Translations under genes and position numbers: made by a program
NCBI GenBank assembly: GCA_965263355.1
Contig: CBDHHL010000032.1
Coordinates: 640,001-704,000, forward strand
DNA length: 64,000 bases
Direction: 5' to 3'
From: Leptolyngbyaceae cyanobacterium
GTDB lineage: Bacteria; Cyanobacteriota; Cyanobacteriia; Phormidesmidales; Phormidesmidaceae
Notes under the pieces: model-generated
What the model was told of the DNA's origin: nothing
Databases searched by the model: none
What the model saw: the letters and a program-made list of their open reading frames with translations, nothing else
Shown here: positions 12,804-63,618 of the stretch, piece by piece
Numbering within the stretch: position 1 is the first letter of the stretch
Layout: each line of letters opens with the position of its first letter

Positions 12804-13493
12804 ATGGGCCCCACATCCAACGAAACACCTGCCGGTAAAATCCTGATTGTTGACGATCACCAGGTCGTCCTGAGTGGCACCATCGATATCCTGCGTCAAC
12901 ACTACCCAACCTATGACTTATTAACGGCTAAAACAGCCCAGGAAGCGCTTGAGAAATTAGCCAACCATCGACTTGACCTGGCGATTTTAGACCTGTCTAT
13001 TCCTGACGCGTTACACCAGGATGCCAAGGTGGAAACTGGCATTGAGCTACTTAGGCAAGTGATGAAACACTACCCCGAGCAAAACATTGCCATCCAAAGC
13101 ACCTACATCAAGGCTCTAGTTCGAGTTAGATCCGAGATCGACAGCCATCAGGGTGGCTTTACCATCGTCGATAAAAGCATGTCTAGCCAGGACATTTTTC
13201 AGCGCATTGATGGTGCCTTAAAAGGATTTAGCCATACCCGAGGCATTAAAGCACTACAGGCTGGCATCGAACTAAAACCCGAATGGCTACAGGTTCTCAC
13301 CTTTGCGTTTCATGAAGGTCTACAGGACAAAGCCATTGCCCAAGCACTGAGCGTACAACCCAGCACAATTCGCCATTACTGGAATAAACTCTACGACGTG
13401 CTGGAAATAGACCCTGAGCTAGACAAAAAGGAAGGAAAAAATCTGCGTAGCCTAACTGAAATCCGTGCCCGTGAGCGAGGGCTACTGGACTAA
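12804..13493 (+). CDS. NarL/LuxR-type DNA-binding response regulator
   Basis: KILIVDDH, LAILDLSIP (phospho-Asp) and C-terminal HTH GLQDKAIAQALSVQPSTIRHYW; TAATG overlap with the kinase. Confidence 0.9.
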   Translation: MGPTSNETPAGKILIVDDHQVVLSGTIDILRQHYPTYDLLTAKTAQEALEKLANHRLDLAILDLSIPDALHQDAKVETGIELLRQVMKHYPEQNIAIQSTYIKALVRVRSEIDSHQGGFTIVDKSMSSQDIFQRIDGALKGFSHTRGIKALQAGIELKPEWLQVLTFAFHEGLQDKAIAQALSVQPSTIRHYWNKLYDVLEIDPELDKKEGKNLRSLTEIRARERGLLD

Positions 13494-15460
13494 TGGACGC
13501 TGCTGGATTAGTAGAAGAACGGAGTCGCTGGGGAGAACTTTTAGAAAAGCTCAAAACAGGACTCTGGGGGATCGGTATTGTCGCATCCATCATAGGTGCC
13601 CGTTCCTTAGGCGCATTTCATGTTTTGGAACTTATGGCGTTAGATCGCCTATTTGCCACGCAGCTATCCTTTGAAACAGGCGATAAGGCCATCACGATCG
13701 TTGAAATTGGCCCTAACTATGCTGATGGTTCTGAAGAACAGGGCTACACCATTGATGCCACATCGTTGGCAGACGTCTTAGACAATATCTTCAAAAATGA
13801 ACCGGCTGTTGTTGGTGCAGATATCTTGTCTTATCGAATTACAGGAGATATTCAAAATAACCTGCTACCAACTATTGAAAAACATTCCAACCTGATTACA
13901 GTCGAGGGGATTTTAGCTAATCCAGCAGAGCCATTACCGGGTCTCTCTGAAACGCAATTAGCACAGCAAGTTGGATTTAATGACTTGGTTATTGATCAAG
14001 ATGGTACTGTTCGTCGTGCCCTTTTAGATGCCTATAAAAATGAAGAATATAGGACATCCTTTGCTATTCAGGTAATTCAGAGCTACTTCAAACGTGAAAA
14101 CTCCAGTGGTGAACGACTTGAATTGAAAAATGGTACTAAGGATTCAGCCACTATGAGTTTTGGAGAGGTTGAAATTCCAAGAATTAAAGCTGGATATGGA
14201 TATACTAGCGGTGATGTATTTAGTCTCCAAACCCTCATTAACTATCGAGGTCAGGTAAAACCATTTAAAGTTATTAGTGCGACTGATTTACTCACCTCCC
14301 AAAACGATCAAAATGACCTAATTAAAGATAAGGTCGTTATTATCAGCTTGGTAGGTTCACCTCACGACTATAAAATTCCACTAACCGTATTTAATCGTTT
14401 AATAGATAATTCTCAACTAGTTAACGGTGTCGAGATCCAGGCCTACGTTATCAATCAAGTTATTAAAGCAGTAGAAGATCAGCAACCACTTGTTTGGACT
14501 AATCGAACAGTTCAATATATATTCTTGCTATCTTTGTCAATTCTTAGCATTGTTGCTAGCAGATTTTCAAGGGATGTAATTAGTGGCTTTATTCAATTAT
14601 CGATTATTACTTTTTTAAGTATTTTACTTAGCTATATCCTATTGATGCAGATAGGTCTCTGGTTACCTCTGTCAGCTACCCTTGCGGCTGTCACTTCCAA
14701 TGGTCTTATCTACATTAACTATGCTCAAAATGAGCGTCGTTGGACTAGGTTAATAGCTCAACGAAACCTTGCTCTTGAAAAGGAACGCCATCTATCTGAA
14801 AAATTGGCTTTTGAACGGCAAAAAACGATAGAAAATGTATTTGACTCCATTCATAATGGCCCCTTGCAAACCTTAGCTAATTTATTAAGACGTACTCGCG
14901 ATGAGACAATTGGACTATCCGATATTTGTCTAAGCTTAGAGGATCTAAACCGTGAAATTCGCTATATCGGTGACTCTATTAAGCAAGATGCCACGGAGAA
15001 AAAGGAACGTCTTGATGTTAGCTATGCAGGGACTAAATTTGATTTAAATATTCCTCTTCAAGAGCTATTTCAGGAAGTTTATGATGCAATGTTGTCAAGA
15101 CCTTTATTAGGATTTTCAGACCTCAAGTTCACTATCATATCGTTTGAGCCAATTGAGACAGAAATGCTCAATGTTGAAGTTAAGCGTAAACTATGTAGAT
15201 TTCTAGAAGAAGCCCTAGGAAATGTTGGAAAACATGCTGTTGGAGCTACACGGTTAGTGGTGACCGGAAAAACTAAAGACAACTATTATGAGTTAACCGT
15301 AGCTGATAACGGTCCCGGTTTTCCTCATCATGATACTGAAGCTGGTGAAGGCACCCGTATCGGTAAGGAAATTGAAAAATTAACTCGAGGTAAATTTGTA
15401 CGTAGACAAAATGTACCTAAAGGTTTCTTCTGTCAATTAACGTTTCCGATATCAATCTAA
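13493..15460 (+). CDS. CHASE2-domain sensor histidine kinase
   Basis: CHASE2 motifs LELMALD, PAVVGADI, VGFNDLVIDQDGTVRRALL and GVEIQA; about 3 TMs; H-box IHNGPLQ; ATPase motifs EEALGNVGKHA and DNGPG. Confidence 0.88.
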   Translation: MDAAGLVEERSRWGELLEKLKTGLWGIGIVASIIGARSLGAFHVLELMALDRLFATQLSFETGDKAITIVEIGPNYADGSEEQGYTIDATSLADVLDNIFKNEPAVVGADILSYRITGDIQNNLLPTIEKHSNLITVEGILANPAEPLPGLSETQLAQQVGFNDLVIDQDGTVRRALLDAYKNEEYRTSFAIQVIQSYFKRENSSGERLELKNGTKDSATMSFGEVEIPRIKAGYGYTSGDVFSLQTLINYRGQVKPFKVISATDLLTSQNDQNDLIKDKVVIISLVGSPHDYKIPLTVFNRLIDNSQLVNGVEIQAYVINQVIKAVEDQQPLVWTNRTVQYIFLLSLSILSIVASRFSRDVISGFIQLSIITFLSILLSYILLMQIGLWLPLSATLAAVTSNGLIYINYAQNERRWTRLIAQRNLALEKERHLSEKLAFERQKTIENVFDSIHNGPLQTLANLLRRTRDETIGLSDICLSLEDLNREIRYIGDSIKQDATEKKERLDVSYAGTKFDLNIPLQELFQEVYDAMLSRPLLGFSDLKFTIISFEPIETEMLNVEVKRKLCRFLEEALGNVGKHAVGATRLVVTGKTKDNYYELTVADNGPGFPHHDTEAGEGTRIGKEIEKLTRGKFVRRQNVPKGFFCQLTFPISI

Positions 15461-15625
15461 ATCAGTAATAAATCAGACATTTAACCCATCCTTTTATCTC
15501 AAAATAATTATATAAAGGAGTAAGGGAATAAAGACTATTTACTTGTTTTTTTATTCCTAATAAATAGACAATATTTAAGATGTCAGGCAAACATCTATCC
15601 ACGTCAACCTAATAATTTCTAGGAG

Positions 15626-15808
15626 GTGATTAAAACGTCTGCATTAAGCATAACAAAGCGGCTATGGCTCAATTTAGTTATAGCAACATTCATTTCCCTG
15701 CCCATCATTCCTTTGACGGGTATTGCTGCTAACGCTAATTTTGAACCGCAACTACCGCGACCAGATCCTGGCCAGCCTACTGGTAGGACAGGGAGTTCTA
15801 CTCGCTGA
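15626..15808 (+). CDS. Predicted secreted peptide precursor (signal peptide plus 23 aa Pro/Gly-rich peptide ending GSSTR), resembling the DUF928 N-terminal motif
   Basis: Basic n-region, hydrophobic h-region LWLNLVIATFISLPIIPLTGI and A-N-A cleavage site; perfect SD AGGAGGTGAT at 15621-15630; strong terminator directly after. Exact start codon uncertain. Confidence 0.7.
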   Translation: MIKTSALSITKRLWLNLVIATFISLPIIPLTGIAANANFEPQLPRPDPGQPTGRTGSSTR

Positions 15809-15877: not shown

Positions 15878-16150
15878 AGTAAAGTCAACTGCACTTTGTA
15901 GAAAAGTAGAAAGGCCTTTAAAGAGAAGATGTAGTACGGCTGGAGAAAAGGTAACAGAGAACTGCATAAAAGCAAATTGTTTTGATAAAGAGCCTTAGGT
16001 ATTCTGTAATTGTTCGATAAACATTAGTGATTTGGCTTACTTTTTTGCTTATCTCACTGATTTACATCTGAACCGTTATTACAAGGTCAGATGATTTATG
16101 TCACTGCTGACCGACGACTGCTTCCTTATTGTGATCTTGGAGCTTGTGCA

Positions 16151-16294
16151 ATGCCTTTCCTACCATTTTTCACAGTTTGTCTGGCCTTTTTTCTCTTCTC
16201 CGAAGTTTTGACTCCCAAGCCCCAGTCTAAGCAAAAGGAAACAAAAGATAACGCTACCAAACTGTTAATCGAGTTGAAAAACGCCGATAGTTGA
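16151..16294 (+). CDS. Small single-TM protein (47 aa)
   Basis: MPFLPFFTVCLAFFLFSEVLTPKPQSKQKETK...; GGAG 8 nt upstream of ATG 16151; hydrophobic N-terminus followed by a Lys-rich tail. Confidence 0.5.
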   Translation: MPFLPFFTVCLAFFLFSEVLTPKPQSKQKETKDNATKLLIELKNADS

Positions 16295-16619
16295 TTAACT
16301 CAGCAATTATTTGATTTAAGCACTAACTAACCTAGTTTGAGAGGACTTCACCATGATCGTTCTATCTTCAATGACAGCAATGAGAACACAGCGTCTAGAG
16401 TTATTCGCGACCTTGGTGATGTCCTTGTGGAATAAGCTCAAACAGCAACCAGGGTGTGAAGCGGATTGCTACTAATATCACATATTTATCTAATACGTTT
16501 TTGGTGTTGTTGATTGTAGGGATGACCGCATCTGAAAAGCGTTAACTCATTACTAACGCAACAGATCGCAACATTTTCTGGATCAGCAACGGTATTTCTC
16601 AAGTTTTGCTGTGACAGTC

Positions 16620-55289: not shown

Positions 55290-55838
55290 ATGGCAGCATC
55301 CCTTTGGAGACTACCGCTTGATCGAGCAGTTCGCTACGCTGTTAGCGATGCTCTAGCGTCCGTCAAATCCCATGTGTACGATTTAGAGTACAACCAACGT
55401 CGGTCTCCCCAGGAAGTAGTGACCTGGAATAATTATCTGGCCGACTTGAGGGCTCTACACCAGTTGCTACTCAATTTACCTAGCTTAGAAACAGCCCAAT
55501 GGTTGACTGATGACCAGGCCTATGGCGCTCCCACATTCACCCCATTTGTCCATGGCATCACCGATGCTAGGACCAGCATTCGACGCGTTCATAATTGGTT
55601 ACTTTCCCTCCCTCAGAAAACAGCTGTAGATAGTACATATGAATTCGAAGACAAATCTGTTCTATCAGAACAGCAACACTATGCTTATCAGATTGACAAA
55701 GCCCTAACCAAGCTCCAGATGTTGCCTACTCCTGGTAGTGAGGCATGGTATGCAACATATGAGCCGACTCTGGAGCATTCTCTAACGCCGTTAACCACAA
55801 CAGCACCACAGCAAACCTTAGAACCTGCTGTAGCCTAA
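55290..55838 (+). CDS. Hypothetical protein
   Basis: 182 aa ORF with GAGG upstream and a terminator downstream; no motif recognised. Confidence 0.6.
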   Translation: MAASLWRLPLDRAVRYAVSDALASVKSHVYDLEYNQRRSPQEVVTWNNYLADLRALHQLLLNLPSLETAQWLTDDQAYGAPTFTPFVHGITDARTSIRRVHNWLLSLPQKTAVDSTYEFEDKSVLSEQQHYAYQIDKALTKLQMLPTPGSEAWYATYEPTLEHSLTPLTTTAPQQTLEPAVA

Positions 55839-55899: not shown

Positions 55900-55931
55900 A
55901 AAGGGAGCTGCCATAAAAGGCGGCTCCCTTT
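55900..55931 (+). terminator. Probable terminator
   Basis: AAAGGGAGCTGCC-ataaaa-GGCGGCTCCCTTT. Confidence 0.7.
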
Positions 55932-56075: not shown

Positions 56076-58667
56076 ATGATGATGCAGAAATGGTTAAATC
56101 AGCTGCTCAAACAAACCTTTATGGGGCAAAAGCTACTGAAATGGTGGCTATACTCTGTGATGATTTGTCTGCTAATTATTCTAACTAGACCTAGTTTGGC
56201 AATCCAAACACCGCCAGATTTGCTGCCAGATTCACTTTTGAGCTACGGCCATCAAGCCTATGCATCAGGCCAATTCCACTTAGCAAGACAGCAGTGGCAA
56301 CAGGCGGCCCATCACTATAGCCAGCAACAAAAACCGGCTGAAACCGCATTGAGCCTAAGCTATTTAGCGCTTTCTTACCAGGAATTGGGACAATGGCAAA
56401 AGGCCAAGCAAACTATTGAGCAAAGTTTAGCGCTATTAGAAGCCCATGGACCAGCACCTAAGATCCAGGCCCATGTGCTTAATACCTATGGCAATATTCA
56501 ACTTGCTTTGGGACAACCAGAAGCTGCCCTAGCTACATGGCAAGAAGCCACCACCTACTATCAACAACTTGAAGATCAGGTAGGTCAGCTAGGCAGTCAA
56601 TTAAATCAGGCCCAGGCCATGCAGACCCTAGGGTTTTATCGCCGTGCCAAAACCTTATTGGATGAGCTGACAATCCAAGTTAATCAGCAGTCTGACTCAC
56701 TACTAAAAGCGACAACACTACGTAGTTTAGGCAACTTACTTCAGATAACAGGTAGTCTTGAGCAAGCTCAGACCCTGCTCGAACAAAGTTTAGCAATTAC
56801 TAAAACCCTAAACCAACCAGCGGAAACAAGTAAAACCCTCTTTGCCTTAGCCAATAACTTCAGAGCCCGTCATCAACCGGAGCAAGCTTTGGAGATTTAC
56901 CAACAGTTGATCGTTCTCACAGACAGTCCTCCAGATCGGCTTGAGACTCAACTTAATTTGTTAAGTCTACTGGTGGAATTACAACGATGGGAAGTTGTTC
57001 AACCGCTATTGACTGAATTGAGTCAGCAGTTACCCGATTTACAAGCTAGCCGACCTGCCATTTACAGTCGGGTAAATTTTGCTGAAAGTGCACTTAAATT
57101 TAATCAGGAACGCCCCAATGAAATACCAGCTATTTCTATCCATCATTTAGCCGAGCTGTTAGCTCAAGGAGCGCAGCAGGCACACGCATTACATGACTCG
57201 CGGGCTGAGTCCCTAGCATTGGGTCAACTGGGCAAGTTATATATAACAACCCAACAGTGGCATAATGCGACTGATGTCACACAAAAGGCAATTCACCTGG
57301 CAAAACGTAGCCATGCTCGAGATATTAGCTATCGTTGGCAGTGGCAGTTAGGCGACATCTATCAGCAAAAACAACAGCCACAGCATGCGATCGCAACCTA
57401 TACCGAAGCTGTTGACACCCTTTCCTCCGTACGCGCAGATCTATTAGCGACTAATTCTGAACTCCAGTTCAGCATCAAAGAAAAAGTTGAACCACTCTAC
57501 CGTGATTTAGTCGGTCTGCTATTAAAGCCAGAAGTCCCTGATCAAAAAGCGTTAATACAAGCTCGTAATCTGATTGAAGATCTACAGCTAGTCGAATTAG
57601 AAAACTATTTTCGGTCTGCATGCATTGACACCCAAGCCAAACAAGTTGATCAAATTGATCCACATGCCGCAGTTATTTATCCCATCATTCTGTCAGATCG
57701 GCTAGAAATTGTTCTAGCATTACCCAACCAACCACTCAGCCACTATCGCACCGAAATACCCGATACTGAACTCGAAAATACCCTCAATCAGTTTTTTATT
57801 GCCTTTAATCCAGCTTTGTCCAATCAACGACGGCTGCAACTCTCAAAACAACTATACGACTGGTTAATTCAACCAGCTGCTGCTGAGTTAGCGCAGCATA
57901 ATATCAAAACCCTGGTATTCGTGCTGGATGGCAAACTAAGAAATATTCCCATGGCAGCCCTCTACGATGGCGAAAAATATCTAATAGAAACCTACAGCGT
58001 TGCGTTGACCCCTGGCTTAGAACTAATGGGTCCTCATTTTCACCAGCCCAAACCCCTAGAGGCTCTGATCCTGGGGGTCAGCGAACCACGCCAAGGATTT
58101 TCTCCCCTCCCAGGTGTAAAAGATGAGATTGAAAAAATTGCCGCCAATGTCGAACAAGCCCAGGTATATATCAATCAAGCATTCACTAAACAAACCTTTA
58201 AAGATCAACTCAAAGCCACTCCCTATCCCATTCTGCATCTTGCCACTCACGGCCAATTCAGCTCAGAGCTAGCTAGTACTTTTTTACTAGCCTGGGATGA
58301 AACCATCACCTTAGAAGATTTAGACACCCTCTTAACAGATCGGCGACTGCAGAACAACAATCCGATTGAGCTAATGGTTTTGAGTGCTTGTCAAACTGCC
58401 GAGGGAGATGATCGAGCTACCTTAGGATTAGCGGGTATGGCAATCAAGTCTGGAGCCCGTAGCACCCTAGCGACCTTATGGTCAGTCAATGATAAATCTA
58501 CAGTCCAACTGATCAACTATTTTTATGACGCTCTAAGCAATACAGAGGTCTCAACCACCAAAGCCGAAGCTCTTCGTCAAGCACAAATTTCCCTAATTAA
58601 AAACAAACACTATTCACATCCATTCTATTGGGCTCCCTTTGTACTGATTGGGAATTGGCTAACTTAA
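56076..58667 (+). CDS. TPR-repeat plus CHAT (caspase-like, clan CD) protease with predicted signal peptide
   Basis: Many TPR-like helices; catalytic His in HLATHG (H725) and Cys in LSACQTA (C772); GARSTLATLWSV and HPFYWAPFVLIGNW; N-terminal KWWLYSVMICLLIILTRPSLA. Confidence 0.92.
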   Translation: MMMQKWLNQLLKQTFMGQKLLKWWLYSVMICLLIILTRPSLAIQTPPDLLPDSLLSYGHQAYASGQFHLARQQWQQAAHHYSQQQKPAETALSLSYLALSYQELGQWQKAKQTIEQSLALLEAHGPAPKIQAHVLNTYGNIQLALGQPEAALATWQEATTYYQQLEDQVGQLGSQLNQAQAMQTLGFYRRAKTLLDELTIQVNQQSDSLLKATTLRSLGNLLQITGSLEQAQTLLEQSLAITKTLNQPAETSKTLFALANNFRARHQPEQALEIYQQLIVLTDSPPDRLETQLNLLSLLVELQRWEVVQPLLTELSQQLPDLQASRPAIYSRVNFAESALKFNQERPNEIPAISIHHLAELLAQGAQQAHALHDSRAESLALGQLGKLYITTQQWHNATDVTQKAIHLAKRSHARDISYRWQWQLGDIYQQKQQPQHAIATYTEAVDTLSSVRADLLATNSELQFSIKEKVEPLYRDLVGLLLKPEVPDQKALIQARNLIEDLQLVELENYFRSACIDTQAKQVDQIDPHAAVIYPIILSDRLEIVLALPNQPLSHYRTEIPDTELENTLNQFFIAFNPALSNQRRLQLSKQLYDWLIQPAAAELAQHNIKTLVFVLDGKLRNIPMAALYDGEKYLIETYSVALTPGLELMGPHFHQPKPLEALILGVSEPRQGFSPLPGVKDEIEKIAANVEQAQVYINQAFTKQTFKDQLKATPYPILHLATHGQFSSELASTFLLAWDETITLEDLDTLLTDRRLQNNNPIELMVLSACQTAEGDDRATLGLAGMAIKSGARSTLATLWSVNDKSTVQLINYFYDALSNTEVSTTKAEALRQAQISLIKNKHYSHPFYWAPFVLIGNWLT

Positions 58668-58905
58668 ACCACAGCCAAGTTAAAACCTATAGTCTCTTCC
58701 ACAGCCCACCGTCCTTGAATAAATCAAGTTAGCCATATGCCCCGTGTAAACACGGAGATTTTTTACTAATATCGAAACACCAAATACAATCTTCACATCT
58801 ATTTCCGTTAAAACACATAAATTTTCTCCTATTCACTTTGTTAGGTTAGTAAAAACAACTACATAGGATGTATTCATTATCCTACTGCTGTTTTTATAGG
58901 CGAAC

Positions 58906-59625
58906 ATGATTAGACTTATGGTGCGACATTACATAACAACTGGCATCGCAATATCGGCGATTTTATTGAGCTGTGGCACTGCTATGGCCGAAATTTCAAC
59001 AGAAAATCTAAATGCTACGTCATTACCAACGAATGACTGGTCTTTCTGGCCAACGGATGACGATAAAGCACCCAACAATACGGTCAGCGGCGCATCTCGA
59101 GGGAGTTGTTCCAACGACCAAGTAATTGCCCTATTACCCAGTTCTCAATATGGGCTTACCAGCAAATCTCATCCTGAGATATTAGTAGCTACCACCTCAG
59201 TGGATACAACGGATCAAGCACTTTTTAGCATGCAATCAGCAGACGGTTACTACTACGAAACCTATATTGAATTACCAGATACCCCAGGCATCATCAATAT
59301 TGCACTACCGAGTGAGGCTCCGGCCTTAGATGTTAATCAGCTCTACCAATGGTCATTAGTCTTGATGTGTAATAACCAATTAAGACCTGACAGCCCTGCA
59401 ATACAGGGATGGATCCAGACACAACCAATCAACAGTAACATCACCACACCTTCTATAGAACAGGCCATCGAGTATCGAGAAGCTCATTTGTGGTATGACA
59501 TGGTTGCATTATTGGCAGAACTACGACGACAAGAACCAACAAATCAAGCTGTTTATGAAGCTTGGCAAGGCGTTTTAGCTGGCCTTGAACTGATGGCTGT
59601 AGTGTATGAGCCGATTATTAAATAG
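58906..59625 (+). CDS. DUF928 domain protein with predicted signal peptide
   Basis: SGASRGSC, ALLP...GLTSKSHP, PGIINIALP, LYQWSLVLMC, QGWIQ, LWYD and W..VL...EL; typical position between CHAT and CHASE2 genes. Confidence 0.85.
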   Translation: MIRLMVRHYITTGIAISAILLSCGTAMAEISTENLNATSLPTNDWSFWPTDDDKAPNNTVSGASRGSCSNDQVIALLPSSQYGLTSKSHPEILVATTSVDTTDQALFSMQSADGYYYETYIELPDTPGIINIALPSEAPALDVNQLYQWSLVLMCNNQLRPDSPAIQGWIQTQPINSNITTPSIEQAIEYREAHLWYDMVALLAELRRQEPTNQAVYEAWQGVLAGLELMAVVYEPIIK

Positions 59626-59683
59626 CTGCTCTCTTGGCTGTGGGGGGCATGCTAAAAGAAACTCTTTGGCATCAAAATTGGGT

Positions 59684-61429
59684 ATGTTGCGATTGGGATG
59701 GCAAATTCGCCAACTAGGAGGAATTCTAGCCGTTTCATGTGGTATTTCAACACTAGTGATAGCTATTAGCATCACAGGAATATTGCAACCCTTAGAATGG
59801 TTTGCATTCGACCGTCTACTACAGCAGAAGGCCGCTGATACGCTTGATTCACGTTTCTTGATCGTCACCATCGGAGAGGAAGATCTGAGAAACCTTGGTG
59901 AATGGCCAATTTCTGATGGCAAAATGGCCAGTATGCTGCAAGAACTGCAGCGCCATCAACCTCGGGTCATCGGTATAGATATTTATCGAGATCTACCCGT
60001 TGGCACCGGACGTGAGCAGCTTAAAGCGGCCTTTCAAACTATTCCTAATATCGTTGGAGTAGAAAAGGTCATTGGTGAACCGGTACCACCACCGCCTGAA
60101 CTTGATCCACACCATCAAGTCGGCATGACTGATTTAGTTGCTGATGCTGACGGACGCATCAGACGAGGTTTATTGGCCATCCAATGCGATAAAGAACAAC
60201 AGCTGTGTAATGAAAACGAACATCAACAAATCAAATATGGATTAGCCACGAAGTTGGCTTTGATCTATTTAGAATCTGAACAGATTTATCCCCAGACAAT
60301 AGACAAAGACCGTTTACGACTGGGGCAAGCTATCTTGAAACGCTTAGCTGCTAATGATGGTGGTTATGCCAATGTGGATGCAGAGAGCACTCAAATTCTA
60401 ATCAACTATCCGGCAGGTCAATTATTTTTTGAGACCGTAACGTTTTCACAGGTCCTTAATGGAGAGGTATCTACCCACAAAATCCAGGATAAAGTCGTTC
60501 TGATTGGCGCAACAGCAGTTAGCCTAAATGACTTGCTATATACTCCCATGAGTTTGGAGGAACGCCTGCCGGGTGTATTTATCCATGCACATATTGCCAG
60601 CCAATTAATTGGCAGTGCCCTTAATGAACGTAGGCCCTTAAACGGAGCTTCTCCATGGGTTAAAAGCTTGTGGATTCTGCTATCAACCAACCTGGCTGTT
60701 ATCTTAGTGTCTTGGATTACAAACAAAGGAGGCCTATATCGACAAAAGAGTCTATTCTCCCTGGCATTTATCATGCCATGTGTATGGTCTGGAGTAATTG
60801 GGGTTACCTACGGCTTTTTGCTTATGGGCCTATGGTTACCCATAGCAGCATCCCTACTATCGATTTCTTCTTCTTCAATCCTATTGTTACTTCGACAAAA
60901 CCAGCAGCTCCATGGCTTAGCCTCTATCGATGGCCTCACTCGCATTGCGAATCGTCGTTCCTTCGACCATTACCTGCAACAATGCATTTATCTCCAAGAA
61001 AAACTAGCCCTCGTGCTCTGTGATGTAGATTATTTCAAACGTTATAACGATACCTACGGTCATCAAGAAGGGGATAAATGCCTGAGATTAGTAGCTAAAA
61101 CCCTAGAGCAAGGGGTACGACGCAGTGATTTTGTTGCTCGCTATGGTGGAGAAGAATTTGTGATTGTGTTACCAAATACAGAGACCTCCATGGCCTATGG
61201 AATTTTAGAGCGAGTTCAAAAACAGATAGCCAATTTGGAAATTGCCCATACAGCTTCGGAGGTTAGTGATTATGTGACCTTGAGCTTTGGTCTGGTGACT
61301 GTGGATAACCTGAAAGGTATTTCAGCCAAAGCCATCATTGAATGGGCTGATCACGCTTTATATCAAGCTAAAAAACTGGGACGCAACCGGGTTTCTGCAA
61401 CTATCTTTCCTCAAGATAGCTCACTTTAG
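59684..61429 (+). CDS. CHASE2-GGDEF diguanylate cyclase (start uncertain, 59606 or 59684)
   Basis: CHASE2 motifs LEWFAFD, PRVIGIDIYRDLP, DADGRIRR and PGVFIHA; 3 TMs; DGLTRIANRR, DVDYFKRYNDTYGH, RxxD I-site RRSD and GGEEF. Confidence 0.92.
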   Translation: MLRLGWQIRQLGGILAVSCGISTLVIAISITGILQPLEWFAFDRLLQQKAADTLDSRFLIVTIGEEDLRNLGEWPISDGKMASMLQELQRHQPRVIGIDIYRDLPVGTGREQLKAAFQTIPNIVGVEKVIGEPVPPPPELDPHHQVGMTDLVADADGRIRRGLLAIQCDKEQQLCNENEHQQIKYGLATKLALIYLESEQIYPQTIDKDRLRLGQAILKRLAANDGGYANVDAESTQILINYPAGQLFFETVTFSQVLNGEVSTHKIQDKVVLIGATAVSLNDLLYTPMSLEERLPGVFIHAHIASQLIGSALNERRPLNGASPWVKSLWILLSTNLAVILVSWITNKGGLYRQKSLFSLAFIMPCVWSGVIGVTYGFLLMGLWLPIAASLLSISSSSILLLLRQNQQLHGLASIDGLTRIANRRSFDHYLQQCIYLQEKLALVLCDVDYFKRYNDTYGHQEGDKCLRLVAKTLEQGVRRSDFVARYGGEEFVIVLPNTETSMAYGILERVQKQIANLEIAHTASEVSDYVTLSFGLVTVDNLKGISAKAIIEWADHALYQAKKLGRNRVSATIFPQDSSL

Positions 61430-62461
61430 GGGTAAACAAATAATGAAAGTAGCTCCTTTGTGAGCATTATCATACAAAAGTTGGCCATGGTGTTTCTCGA
61501 CAACGATTTGGTAGCTGAGGGCCATCCCTAAACCTGTTCCTTTACCTACTGGCTTAGTACTAAAAAACGGATCAAATATTTTTTCTTGAACATGGGAGGG
61601 AATACCTGGGCCATTGTCTGAAATTTCGATAATGACTTGTTCATTTTGATGGCGAGTGACAATCTTAATCTCAGGTTCTTTCACCCTGGCATCTCTCAAT
61701 GCATCAATGGCATTGGCCAGAATATTCATAAATACTTGATTAATCTGGCCAGCATAACAAGCAACTTGAGGCAACGGACTATAGGATTTAGTTACTCGAA
61801 TTTCAGAACAGTCAGAACTGGCTTTTAACCGATGGCCTAAAATCACCAAGGTACTGTCTAATCCAGCATGTAGATCAACTAGCTTGTACTCTGCTTCGTC
61901 CATGCGTGAAAATGTGCGCAATGAAAGAACAATCTCTCTAATGCGTTCAGCTCCCATACGCATTGACGACATCACCTTAGGCAAGTCATCTCTCAAAAAC
62001 TCTAGCTCAATAGTATCAATACAGTCCTTAACTTCAGGAGTTTGTTCTAGATAACATGCTTGATATACCGACACTAGAGTGAGCAAATCTTCCATGTACT
62101 GTTGTGCATACTCAAGGTTGCCATAGATAAAGCTAACAGGATTATTAATTTCATGGGCTACCCCTGCAACCAATACCCCAAGAGCTGACATTTTTTCTGC
62201 CGTTAGCAGCCGTGACTGCATCGCTCGTACATCATCTAAGGCTTGTTCCAGCTCTTGACTGCGCGCCTGTAGTGCCTGTTCAGACTGCTGTGCTTCTTGT
62301 ACCGCTTTAGACAGTAAAGACTCTGACATTTGGCGACTTTGGTGTAAGCGCTCAAGAATTCGCTCTTGGCGTAACAATGTCTTCTTAAGTTTGCGATTTT
62401 CCTTATCTAAGGTCTTGAGTTGCTCAGTTAGAGCTTGTTCCTTAGGGGATAGCTCTGTCAC
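61421..62461 (-). CDS. Cytoplasmic histidine kinase (coiled coil, HisKA, HATPase)
   Basis: AGVAHEINNP, NQVFMNILANAID, DNGPG, FDPFFSTKPVGKGTGLG; no TM or sensor domain. Confidence 0.93.
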   Translation of the reverse strand: MTELSPKEQALTEQLKTLDKENRKLKKTLLRQERILERLHQSRQMSESLLSKAVQEAQQSEQALQARSQELEQALDDVRAMQSRLLTAEKMSALGVLVAGVAHEINNPVSFIYGNLEYAQQYMEDLLTLVSVYQACYLEQTPEVKDCIDTIELEFLRDDLPKVMSSMRMGAERIREIVLSLRTFSRMDEAEYKLVDLHAGLDSTLVILGHRLKASSDCSEIRVTKSYSPLPQVACYAGQINQVFMNILANAIDALRDARVKEPEIKIVTRHQNEQVIIEISDNGPGIPSHVQEKIFDPFFSTKPVGKGTGLGMALSYQIVVEKHHGQLLYDNAHKGATFIICLPLK

Positions 62462-62463
62462 AG

Positions 62464-63618
62464 TTAATCTACTCCAAGTAACAGAGTAACTAGCGTTTCT
62501 TGATGAAAAAAGGATTTTCCCTGCATCTTAAGGGGGGCAATTTCACCATAGGCATAAAAGCCAACCATTGGCATAGCAGGGTCTAAAAACTGTTGTCCCA
62601 AGGCATATTCTTCCTTAGCTCGCCCTCCCAAAATCCAGCGTCTGGCTGCACAAGATATTAGAAAAGCAACTGCTGGCTGCTGACCAGGGTAATGGGCTAC
62701 GGCCTGTTCAATGGAAGATTTGGCGGCAATAATAATTTGATCGTGGGTAGCGTAGGTAATTTGTACTCTGGCCTGTTCAGGGACTTCTCCCATAAAATGA
62801 ATACTATTGGTATTGAGGTCCCATTGATTAGCGGCACGCAAGTAAAATCTGTCACTGCCTTTTTCATAGACAGCAAGGGGATACTCACCATAAATTGGCT
62901 GGGTACCTGTATATTCTTGAAAAAACTGGACAGCAGGCTGATGGTCTATTTCGTGGACAATTTCTCTATCTGCTTTTGTAACAATGGCAGGGCGACTGAG
63001 AGGTTGCCAGCCACTGGCAACCCCGTGGGATAGTTTAAGGCTGTCTCCACAAAATGCCAAAATAGGCAGCCCGTTGTGTACGACCTCTCCCTGATAAAAC
63101 TGATGGGTCTGTTGAAACTGATATTGATCACCAGCAAGACCACCAATAATGGGCGTTTCAGTAGAAAGTTTTGTCTGGATTTGTCGTAGGGAAACCTCTG
63201 TTCCGTCAGCTAGGCCATCAGGTAGGACGATACAAAGTTTAATGTCTTGCAAATTATCTATCTTTAGACTGTCTATTGCTTGGTTCGCTGCTGCTTTTGC
63301 ATCCTCAGACAAATTTCGGCCTAACCCGGCATGGATGGTAATGGTATCAGAGCAAAATAGCGTTAGGGTAATAGAATCTTCTTGAAATCCCTGTTCTGAG
63401 GATATTTCACCATCGGTCGTACAGCCAATGAGCTGAATGCCTGGAAATACGGTTTGGATACGTGCCAAAATCATCCCATAGTTAAAGTCCACTGCGGCAA
63501 AAAGGATACCGGCTTGGGGTAATTGATTATCTAATTGGGCGTGACACTGGTCTAAAATTTCTGCGATCGCATCTTCAGAGTCAATATCTGTACTGTGCCC
63601 AACAATGGCCTTAAACAT
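62464..63618 (-). CDS. FIST N/C domain sensory protein
   Basis: LIGCTTDGEI, PIIGGLAGD, GWQPL, EIDHQPA, SCAAR and GFYAYGEIAP. Confidence 0.9.
   Translation of the reverse strand: MFKAIVGHSTDIDSEDAIAEILDQCHAQLDNQLPQAGILFAAVDFNYGMILARIQTVFPGIQLIGCTTDGEISSEQGFQEDSITLTLFCSDTITIHAGLGRNLSEDAKAAANQAIDSLKIDNLQDIKLCIVLPDGLADGTEVSLRQIQTKLSTETPIIGGLAGDQYQFQQTHQFYQGEVVHNGLPILAFCGDSLKLSHGVASGWQPLSRPAIVTKADREIVHEIDHQPAVQFFQEYTGTQPIYGEYPLAVYEKGSDRFYLRAANQWDLNTNSIHFMGEVPEQARVQITYATHDQIIIAAKSSIEQAVAHYPGQQPAVAFLISCAARRWILGGRAKEEYALGQQFLDPAMPMVGFYAYGEIAPLKMQGKSFFHQETLVTLLLGVD

Follow-up and report, generated by a model that had tools for sequence, protein, structure and literature searches.

Two described cyanobacterial systems come close to the locus reported here. 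In Anabaena PCC 7120 the CHAT protease HetF uses a His/Cys dyad to cleave a dedicated substrate, PatU3, after an arginine (R117|S118); according to the available part of that report, HetF is membrane-anchored with just its TPR part in the periplasm, and the cleavage destroys PatU3 (PMC9457339). In Nostoc PCC 7120 a small Sec-exported precursor, PatX, and an exported peptidase, PatP, give a short Arg-ended signal peptide that, in the text available, requires the motif RG(S/T)GR and has the transcription factor HetR as its target (PMC12756182). Among cyanobacterial systems PatX-PatP comes nearest in function, and the term CHAT is absent from the main text of the paper describing it. We analysed a 64,000-nucleotide stretch of DNA from a Leptolyngbyaceae cyanobacterium (assembly GCA_965263355.1, contig CBDHHL010000032.1, positions 640,001 to 704,000; hereafter the window) and describe a module of three genes, encoding a TPR-CHAT protease, a DUF928 protein with an N-terminal arm and a CHASE2-GGDEF cyclase, in which the protease may release the arm as a ligand for the cyclase. 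In comparison to HetF, the whole TPR-CHAT protein lies behind a signal-like N-terminus, no HetF-type helix separates CHAT from the TPRs, and the proposed outcome of the cut is a ligand. In comparison to PatX, the arm is without the RG(S/T)GR motif and a membrane receptor is proposed. Membership of the PatX family was considered for the arm and for an arm-like mini-peptide encoded elsewhere in the window, and was rejected, as the motif is absent in both.

Further likenesses are found outside this pair. MtxA of magnetotactic bacteria (PDB 4Z29) is exported, combines Ig-like and TPR-like parts, and its gene adjoins that of a CHASE2 adenylate cyclase, but its N-terminal region is long and partly beta-rich where DUF928 has a short arm, and neither a protease nor a peptide ligand is mentioned in the part of the report available (PMC4439547). 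In the NsrA - CyaD1/CyaD2/CyaK - Clr system of Sinorhizobium meliloti, CHASE2 cyclases also respond to a protein signal that is passed on through the envelope; there the input is a plant protein that enters via an outer-membrane barrel, and the accessible text leaves the direct CHASE2 ligand unnamed and is silent on DUF928 and CHAT (PMC13001267). A filamentous cyanobacterium, Leptolyngbya boryana, has the CHASE2-GGDEF cyclase Dgc2, which suppresses motility and biofilm, but Dgc2 also has PAS/PAC, and its report, in the part available, states the CHASE2 ligand to be unknown and mentions neither DUF928 nor CHAT (PMC10581220). By analogy with Dgc2, control of motility or biofilm is a likely kind of output for the window cyclase. 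Craspase (the TPR-CHAT protease Csx29 with Csx30) and separase share TPR-CHAT architecture, an allosteric switch and single-cut signalling with the module, but they are cytoplasmic or nuclear, and Csx29 does not cut after Arg according to the available parts of the reports (PMC9729208, PMC10317155). No CRISPR effector (gRAMP, Csx30) was found among the window open reading frames (ORFs) scanned. The EACC2-caspase-CHASE2 fusions are a different arrangement, as far as their report was available (PMC8195603), and a Nostoc cluster with CHASE2 and DUF928 genes has been reported, with no mechanism proposed in the text available (PMC5587647).

A description of the module was not found in the literature searched, among the matches listed; few subscription titles were included, and supplementary tables of caspase or CHASE2 surveys could mention such neighbourhoods. 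Gram-positive peptide pheromone two-component systems combine an exported precursor, a processing protease and a membrane receptor, and eukaryotic polyprotein hormone precursors carry repeats of one peptide within a single chain. Their logic is similar, but their protein families are all different from those of the window module. Judged by sequence, the module resembles known peptide signalling in its logic, and no described system that we found appears to use these families in these roles. To this the present analysis adds a series of mini-genes that stop at an Arg codon, statistics on the arm repeats, a genome profile, and an Asp covariation together with its failed replication.

The three same-strand ORFs were confirmed in the order TPR-CHAT, DUF928, CHASE2-GGDEF from the window ORFs and Pfam. 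The protease gene product matched PF12770 with E 1e-67 (229 bits, curated cut-off 24), the DUF928 product matched PF06051 with E 7e-43 (147 bits, cut-off 26), and the receptor matched CHASE2 with E 5e-60 and GGDEF with E 8e-50. Among named cyanobacteria the nearest relatives are Leptothoe and Leptolyngbya types, and the same triad was found in the related locus L157. An earlier sequence-only reading had described the genes as co-oriented, with H725 and C772 in the protease, R65 in DUF928, and GGEEF and RxxD in the cyclase; all of these were found where it had placed them. It had further proposed that CHAT cuts DUF928 in the periplasm and that the peptide so freed switches the cyclase. The observation is confirmed, and this interpretation is partly supported and is still the best explanation.

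Based on sequence comparison, we consider it slightly better than an even chance that the arm is the CHASE2 ligand and is released by CHAT at R65. In this mechanism the exported DUF928 protein would be a precursor, with a conserved unit of about 19 residues closing its disordered arm. The exported TPR-CHAT protease would be switched on by some cue via its TPR region, or via a filament domain in related loci, and would then cleave DUF928 after R65. The released arm would bind the CHASE2 domain of the adjoining receptor and would alter, in one direction or the other, the synthesis of cyclic di-GMP (c-di-GMP). At other loci the same arm input may lead to kinases or other outputs, and mini-genes such as that at 15626-15808 would yield the arm directly, signal peptidase being sufficient. 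Export, cleavage, the cleavage site, binding and the role of the receptor residue D125 are the steps that we infer.

The strongest argument for a released arm is that arm-only genes follow CHASE2 receptors, with 20 of 35 stopping at the register of the Arg, and never have CHAT beside them. This was found by starting from a second locus in the window, where a CHASE2 histidine kinase is followed by such a mini-gene. A scan with the kinase alignment confirmed at least 560 stretches, and the best 78 loci were analysed. The rule for a mini-gene (an ORF encoding a signal plus arm), which was formulated after examples had been seen, gave 33 matches in the 58 kb directly 3' of the kinases versus 8 in the other 2.35 Mb of these loci. 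Strictly counted, 29 loci had a mini-gene only, 35 had DUF928 (two of these also a mini-gene) and 14 had neither. Four of the last group (L009, L023, L032, L037) have a mini-gene by eye just beyond the rule, and the adjusted count is thus 33 mini-only, 35 DUF928 and 10 neither. CHAT was present in none of the 33 mini-only loci versus 22 of the 35 DUF928 loci, with less than 3.5 kb of downstream DNA available in 3 of the 33 and in 6 of the 13 CHAT-less DUF928 loci. The stop codon came straight after Arg in 15 of the 35 mini-genes; TAA, TAG and TGA were all found there, which argues that the position of the stop is under selection. Where DUF928 occurs in this kinase family, its arm shows the same layout directly behind the signal, and in L029 and L026 a mini-gene and DUF928 stand in tandem. 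An Arg-stop mini-gene was also seen about 2.9 kb behind a CHASE2-PAS-GGDEF gene (L234).

The sequence-only reading had taken the window mini-gene as the pre-cut equivalent of the arm. It is real and conserved, matches the arm, and sits in the place of DUF928 with no CHAT beside it, but its start is probably the ACG at 15635 (57 aa) and not 15626, as suggested by the sequence GGAGGTG plus 7 bases that precedes ACG in the window (15623-15637) and in 10 of 13 related loci (L001-L017; ATG in two and ATA in one). Such a near-cognate start could throttle the output of peptide. The product had no Pfam or NCBIfam match and no usable Atlas match, and a PDB sequence search with the kinase gave its ATPase domain only. 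As a hidden Markov model profile of DUF928 arms failed to detect the mini-genes of the kinase loci, a position-weight test was used instead. The window mini-peptide scored above 1998 of 2000 shuffles against the profile of 26 DUF928 arms, and for 13 of 21 mini-peptides at most 11 of 2000 shuffles scored as high; L009 and L012 were not distinct. Two small ORFs lie 3' of the mini-gene (16091-16294 and 16353-16475) and are conserved in L001-L013 and L017; they encode about 45 residues, hydrophobic and then basic, and about 41 residues with a Cys-rich end.

Conservation in DUF928 was counted over the 150 best representatives among 4,859 matches. R65 was kept in 148 of these distant representatives, in all 22 aligned close relatives (from 30), and the Arg of the arm in 61 of 64 members of an independent paired set read by eye. 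F47 (146), P49 (138) and P56 (143) were also conserved, indicating that the unit spans Phe to Arg. Units found by pattern were 18-20 residues long in 191 of 198 cases. The conserved unit thus comes to about 18-21 residues, from Phe/Tyr to Arg, with the consensus F/Y-x-P-P ... small-small-S/T-R, and the peptide of about 37 residues proposed earlier did not hold up as a conserved unit. Of the proposed R65/G66 site, the near-invariant Arg stood but G66 did not, as Gly follows Arg in just 73 of 150 representatives; 178 of the 198 units had a small residue (G, S, D, N or T) at this place. In the AlphaFold2 model the confidence score pLDDT is below 50 across most of residues 1-65, the predicted disorder stops at residue 65, and the remainder is folded as a beta sandwich and then helices.

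Tandem units, in 2-8 copies, were found in 23 of the 150 representatives with a strict pattern, and P0201 has nine under a looser one. At the junctions the next Phe came 2-5 residues past the Arg in 63 of 67 cases. This layout is like that of a multi-peptide precursor, although a multivalent tether would look alike. P0107 and P0109 carry two complete DUF928 modules per chain, each with its own arm. No longer DUF928 fusions were found in 7,999 candidates, which is weak evidence, and a PDB sequence search with DUF928 gave no matches. C23 was considered as a lipoprotein site and rejected, being not conserved.

In the protease, H725 and C772 are intact, and both were invariant in all 34 CHAT relatives compared from the fetched DNA, so the dyad claimed for it stands; the example of HetF, which cuts PatU3 after R117, shows in the available text that a cyanobacterial CHAT domain can cut after Arg (PMC9457339). 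E684 was present in 34 and D806 in 33 of the same 34 domains. Clan CD enzymes with Arg specificity grip the P1 Arg through acids of helix alpha-1 and loop L5, according to the part of the source available (PMC4357240). E684 and D806 may, judged by topology alone, correspond to these acids in MALT1, TbMCA2 and RgpB, an equivalent of separase D2151 having been sought and not located; by analogy, they would hold the P1 Arg. A PDB sequence search with the single CHAT domain gave nothing real, and one with a CHAT profile gave two weak matches, to CRISPR TPR-CHAT.

The signal-like N-termini reported for CHAT and DUF928 were recovered as hydrophobic stretches, and such a stretch was present in 24 of 25 CHAT proteins encoded within 1.5 kb of DUF928. 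Export of both is predicted from hydropathy alone. The window protease also has a weaker internal hydrophobic stretch (531-549), and its TPRs precede the C-terminal CHAT domain. Fusions of a TPS secretion domain to CHAT, 1,290-1,550 aa long, stand directly beside DUF928 in L158 (3378-8018), L159 (3054-7625), L166 and L172; such fusions suggest a surface filament as trigger or alternative substrate. A metagenome scan with the CHAT domain gave four loci, short or distant, which were set aside.

The receptor has RxxD at 505-508 and GGEEF at 514-518 and matched TIGR00254 with 158.6 bits (cut-off 37.4); with its active-site and inhibitory-site motifs intact, it is predicted to be a diguanylate cyclase that synthesizes c-di-GMP. 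Three transmembrane segments had been ascribed to it, and hydropathy placed three after CHASE2 but also a further hydrophobic segment N-terminal to this domain. Its start is probably the ATG at 59684, because the ortholog in L157 is 574 aa long.

Over 87 CHASE2 domains in which conservation was assessed, D125 and the motif DxDGxxRR stood out in the cyclase. D110 of the kinase at 13493 corresponds to D125. All 54 kinases paired with DUF928 or with mini-genes stopping in register have Asp there, but of the 15 kinases paired with extended mini-genes that lack the terminal Arg motif 12 have His or Asn; this column ranked second of 312 at separating the partner classes of the kinases. The position ends a beta strand in the CHASE2 model (pLDDT 92). 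Against solved structures the model had no Foldseek match at E 0.001, and its best VIA-align Z score, 4.8 to Mur-ligase C-terminal domains, is below a meaningful level. L039 (9900-11100) has a His-type kinase and no mini-gene, and its downstream DNA resembles an insertion-sequence remnant by eye.

Linkage of the families was assessed in other genomes, five chosen from the kinase loci and 40 further ones across the cyanobacterial phylum. The five hold 52 DUF928 genes, of which 44 had CHASE2 at 5 kb or less, against an expectation of about 3%, and 25 had a strong CHAT match at 8 kb or less, against 3-7%; 44 of 87 CHASE2 matches had no DUF928 nearby. Among the 40, DUF928 and this type of CHAT (E <=1e-60) occurred in the same 13 genomes, with neither in the other 27. 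The copy number of DUF928 correlated with that of CHAT (rho 0.92) and CHASE2 (rho 0.96), and genome size (rho 0.21) does not account for the link with CHAT; the genomes are related, and the P values therefore overstate the case. Near CHASE2 (within 5 kb, leaving out 23 weaker CHASE2 matches) were 66 of 94 DUF928 genes, and near CHAT 41 of 94. In 56 fetched CHASE2 loci without DUF928 the mini-gene rule flagged four ORFs, of which those in L234 and L263 were arm-like. The CHASE2 genes of genomes devoid of DUF928 (L289-L292) scored poorly against the receptor-class profile (42-62 bits, one under the threshold), which suggests a separate CHASE2 class with another input.

Several observations count against release of the arm by CHAT and its recognition through the Asp. 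A free C-terminal Arg had been claimed for the peptide, and while 15 of 35 mini-genes stop after Arg, 20 lack it: five end at the Arg register in H, Y, S, Y and Q, their receptors retaining the Asp, and 15 extend for 8-20 residues without a terminal Arg motif, most of them having a hydrophobic residue at the place of the Arg. The earlier expectation that CHASE2 loci carry either CHAT with DUF928 or a stand-alone peptide failed, as CHAT was absent within 8 kb in 20 of 44 and 31 of 66 DUF928-CHASE2 cases, and a mini-gene was found at only 5 of 44 CHASE2 loci without DUF928, four being kinase loci already counted. Only 39 of 121 CHAT genes in the 40 genomes had DUF928 at 8 kb or less, so that other substrates are possible for these proteases. 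CHASE2 occurred in 39 of the 40 genomes, 26 of them without DUF928, and the proposal therefore covers one large receptor class and not the whole family. CRISPR TPR-CHAT cleavage is not after Arg in the text available (PMC9729208), which means that membership of the CHAT family alone leaves the specificity unfixed. In 5 of 59 motif matches Pro came directly after the Arg. An Arg-Pro bond may resist cleavage by trypsin-like enzymes.

The proposed role of the Asp is weakened as well. An independent set of 63 paired regions was used, of which 60 were fetched and 61 receptors were scorable, and the Asp-Arg covariation was not reproduced in it: Asp was present in 55 of 61 receptors, five of the six receptors without Asp had an Arg-keeping partner, and one receptor whose only partner lacks the Arg (L229) has the Asp. 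Among unpaired receptors 34 of 42 had Asp, and L129 combines a Val receptor with an Arg-bearing mini-gene. Given the failed replication and L129, D125 is a candidate contact only. On the unrooted kinase tree a single supported clade takes in all 33 DUF928-only kinases, and the loss of Asp maps to two clades, so that both contrasts rest on few independent events. The extended mini-genes (L020, L021, L023-L027, L032, L037, L041, L043, L048, L051, L060, L074) and the His/Asn receptors of 12 of these 15 possibly reflect a changed ligand specificity.

The strongest counter-argument, that 20 of 35 mini-genes lack the terminal Arg and that CHAT is often located elsewhere, leaves room for a model in which the arm is a CHASE2 ligand while still attached. 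DUF928 would then present the arm, repeats would raise avidity, and CHAT would cut another substrate, such as a fused secreted filament, or would cut at the Arg and so end the signal. The 15 mini-genes that extend past the Arg position and the five that end in another residue are in line with this, as are the roughly half of DUF928-CHASE2 loci with no CHAT nearby, the majority of CHAT genes with no DUF928 nearby, and L158 and L159, where a TPS-CHAT fusion precedes DUF928 and a CHASE2-GGDEF cyclase. However, a tether does not require 20 of 35 mini-genes to stop at the exact register of the Arg, the residues after Arg are mostly small, and DUF928 shares the same 13 of 40 genomes with this type of CHAT. 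We regard an attached ligand as rather unlikely.

Less probable again, and in our view quite improbable, is that CHAT does cut at R65 but that the active species is the folded DUF928 body or its new N-terminus, or that an inhibitory arm is removed, the mini-peptides being antagonists or decoys. The body is conserved (C68 in 118, C155 in 113 and W196 in 148 of the 150 representatives) and weakly resembles the C-terminal domain of MtxA, whose gene precedes that of a CHASE2 cyclase. Foldseek gave generic Ig-like matches, among which this MtxA domain had the top listed query TM-score (0.38, E 3e-3, rank 37); its Atlas score of 0.77 against the DUF928 body is a lead only, and the window DUF928 had no match to Pfam MtxA at E 0.001. 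On the other hand, 33 kinase loci keep the arm only, with no body in the fetched DNA, and the residue after Arg varies, unlike a fixed new N-terminus. That the arm addresses the protease alone, as bait or securin-like inhibitor, while CHASE2 senses otherwise and the genes are merely co-regulated, is very unlikely: the motif, lying in a disordered stretch, resembles the cleavage sites of clan CD proteases (PMC10317155, available part) and many CHASE2 genes have no arm-bearing neighbour, but arm-only genes follow CHASE2 kinases with CHAT in none of 33 loci, DUF928 is tied closer to CHASE2 than to CHAT (66 versus 41 of 94), and the Asp covaries within the kinase family.

The features of both loci are collected in the table. 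The genes flanking the module encode a GCV_T-domain protein, a 182-aa ORF, a histidine kinase and a FIST protein (Pfam). The 182-aa ORF (55290-55838), upstream of the CHAT gene, was without Pfam or NCBIfam match. At 61421-63618 the FIST-domain gene and the histidine kinase gene converge on the cyclase gene, with an overlap of 9 bases at the cyclase stop. A scan for promoters and terminators in the module region gave sites not above shuffled sequence (6 terminator-like sites vs 5.3).

Features of the three-gene module and the second CHASE2 locus (window positions)
Feature	Position	Strand	Details and basis
TPR-CHAT cysteine protease, putatively exported	56076..58667	+	863 aa; Pfam TPR and CHAT; hydrophobic N-terminus
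Predicted signal peptide of CHAT protein, residues 1-42	56076..56201	+	Putative; hydropathy, small-residue end
CHAT active-site region E684, H725, C772, D806	58125..58493	+	Conservation among 34 related CHAT domains
DUF928 precursor: signal, disordered arm, Ig-like and helical body	58906..59625	+	239 aa; Pfam, AlphaFold2
Arm (DUF928 residues 29-65), proposed ligand	58990..59100	+	Unit F-x-P...P..T..GASR (47-65), R65 last
CHASE2-GGDEF membrane diguanylate cyclase (predicted)	59606..61429	+	607 aa; Pfam, motifs, conservation, model
Terminator-like hairpin 5' of CHAT gene; probable 5' module boundary	55900..55931	+	13-pair stem, T-rich tail; consensus match only
Response regulator, second locus	12804..13493	+	Pfam Response_reg; upstream of kinase also in related loci
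CHASE2 histidine kinase, second locus	13493..15460	+	Pfam CHASE2 and HATPase_c; invariant H454
Mini-gene: signal peptide and arm, stop right after Arg	15626..15808	+	Conserved in related loci; arm-profile match

Taken more broadly, DUF928 proteins could be bacterial pro-hormones, from which an exported caspase-like protease would free up to nine Arg-ended peptides, read as ligands of one large cyanobacterial CHASE2 class via a conserved Asp. The up to 17 precursor paralogs per genome would then feed c-di-GMP, kinase and other outputs in parallel, and some lineages would end the gene at the Arg, with others having changed peptide and pocket jointly. We hold this wider proposal tentatively, at a little short of even. 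CHASE2 is a widespread sensor domain, and specific candidates can now be named for one class of it: a 19-residue peptide, the receptor residue D125, a protease and a cut site. If true, the proposal would assign a function to DUF928 and to many exported CHAT proteases, would show the logic of a precursor with repeats in Gram-negative bacteria, and would give filamentous cyanobacteria a protease-gated route from peptide to second messenger, likely steering gliding and biofilm.

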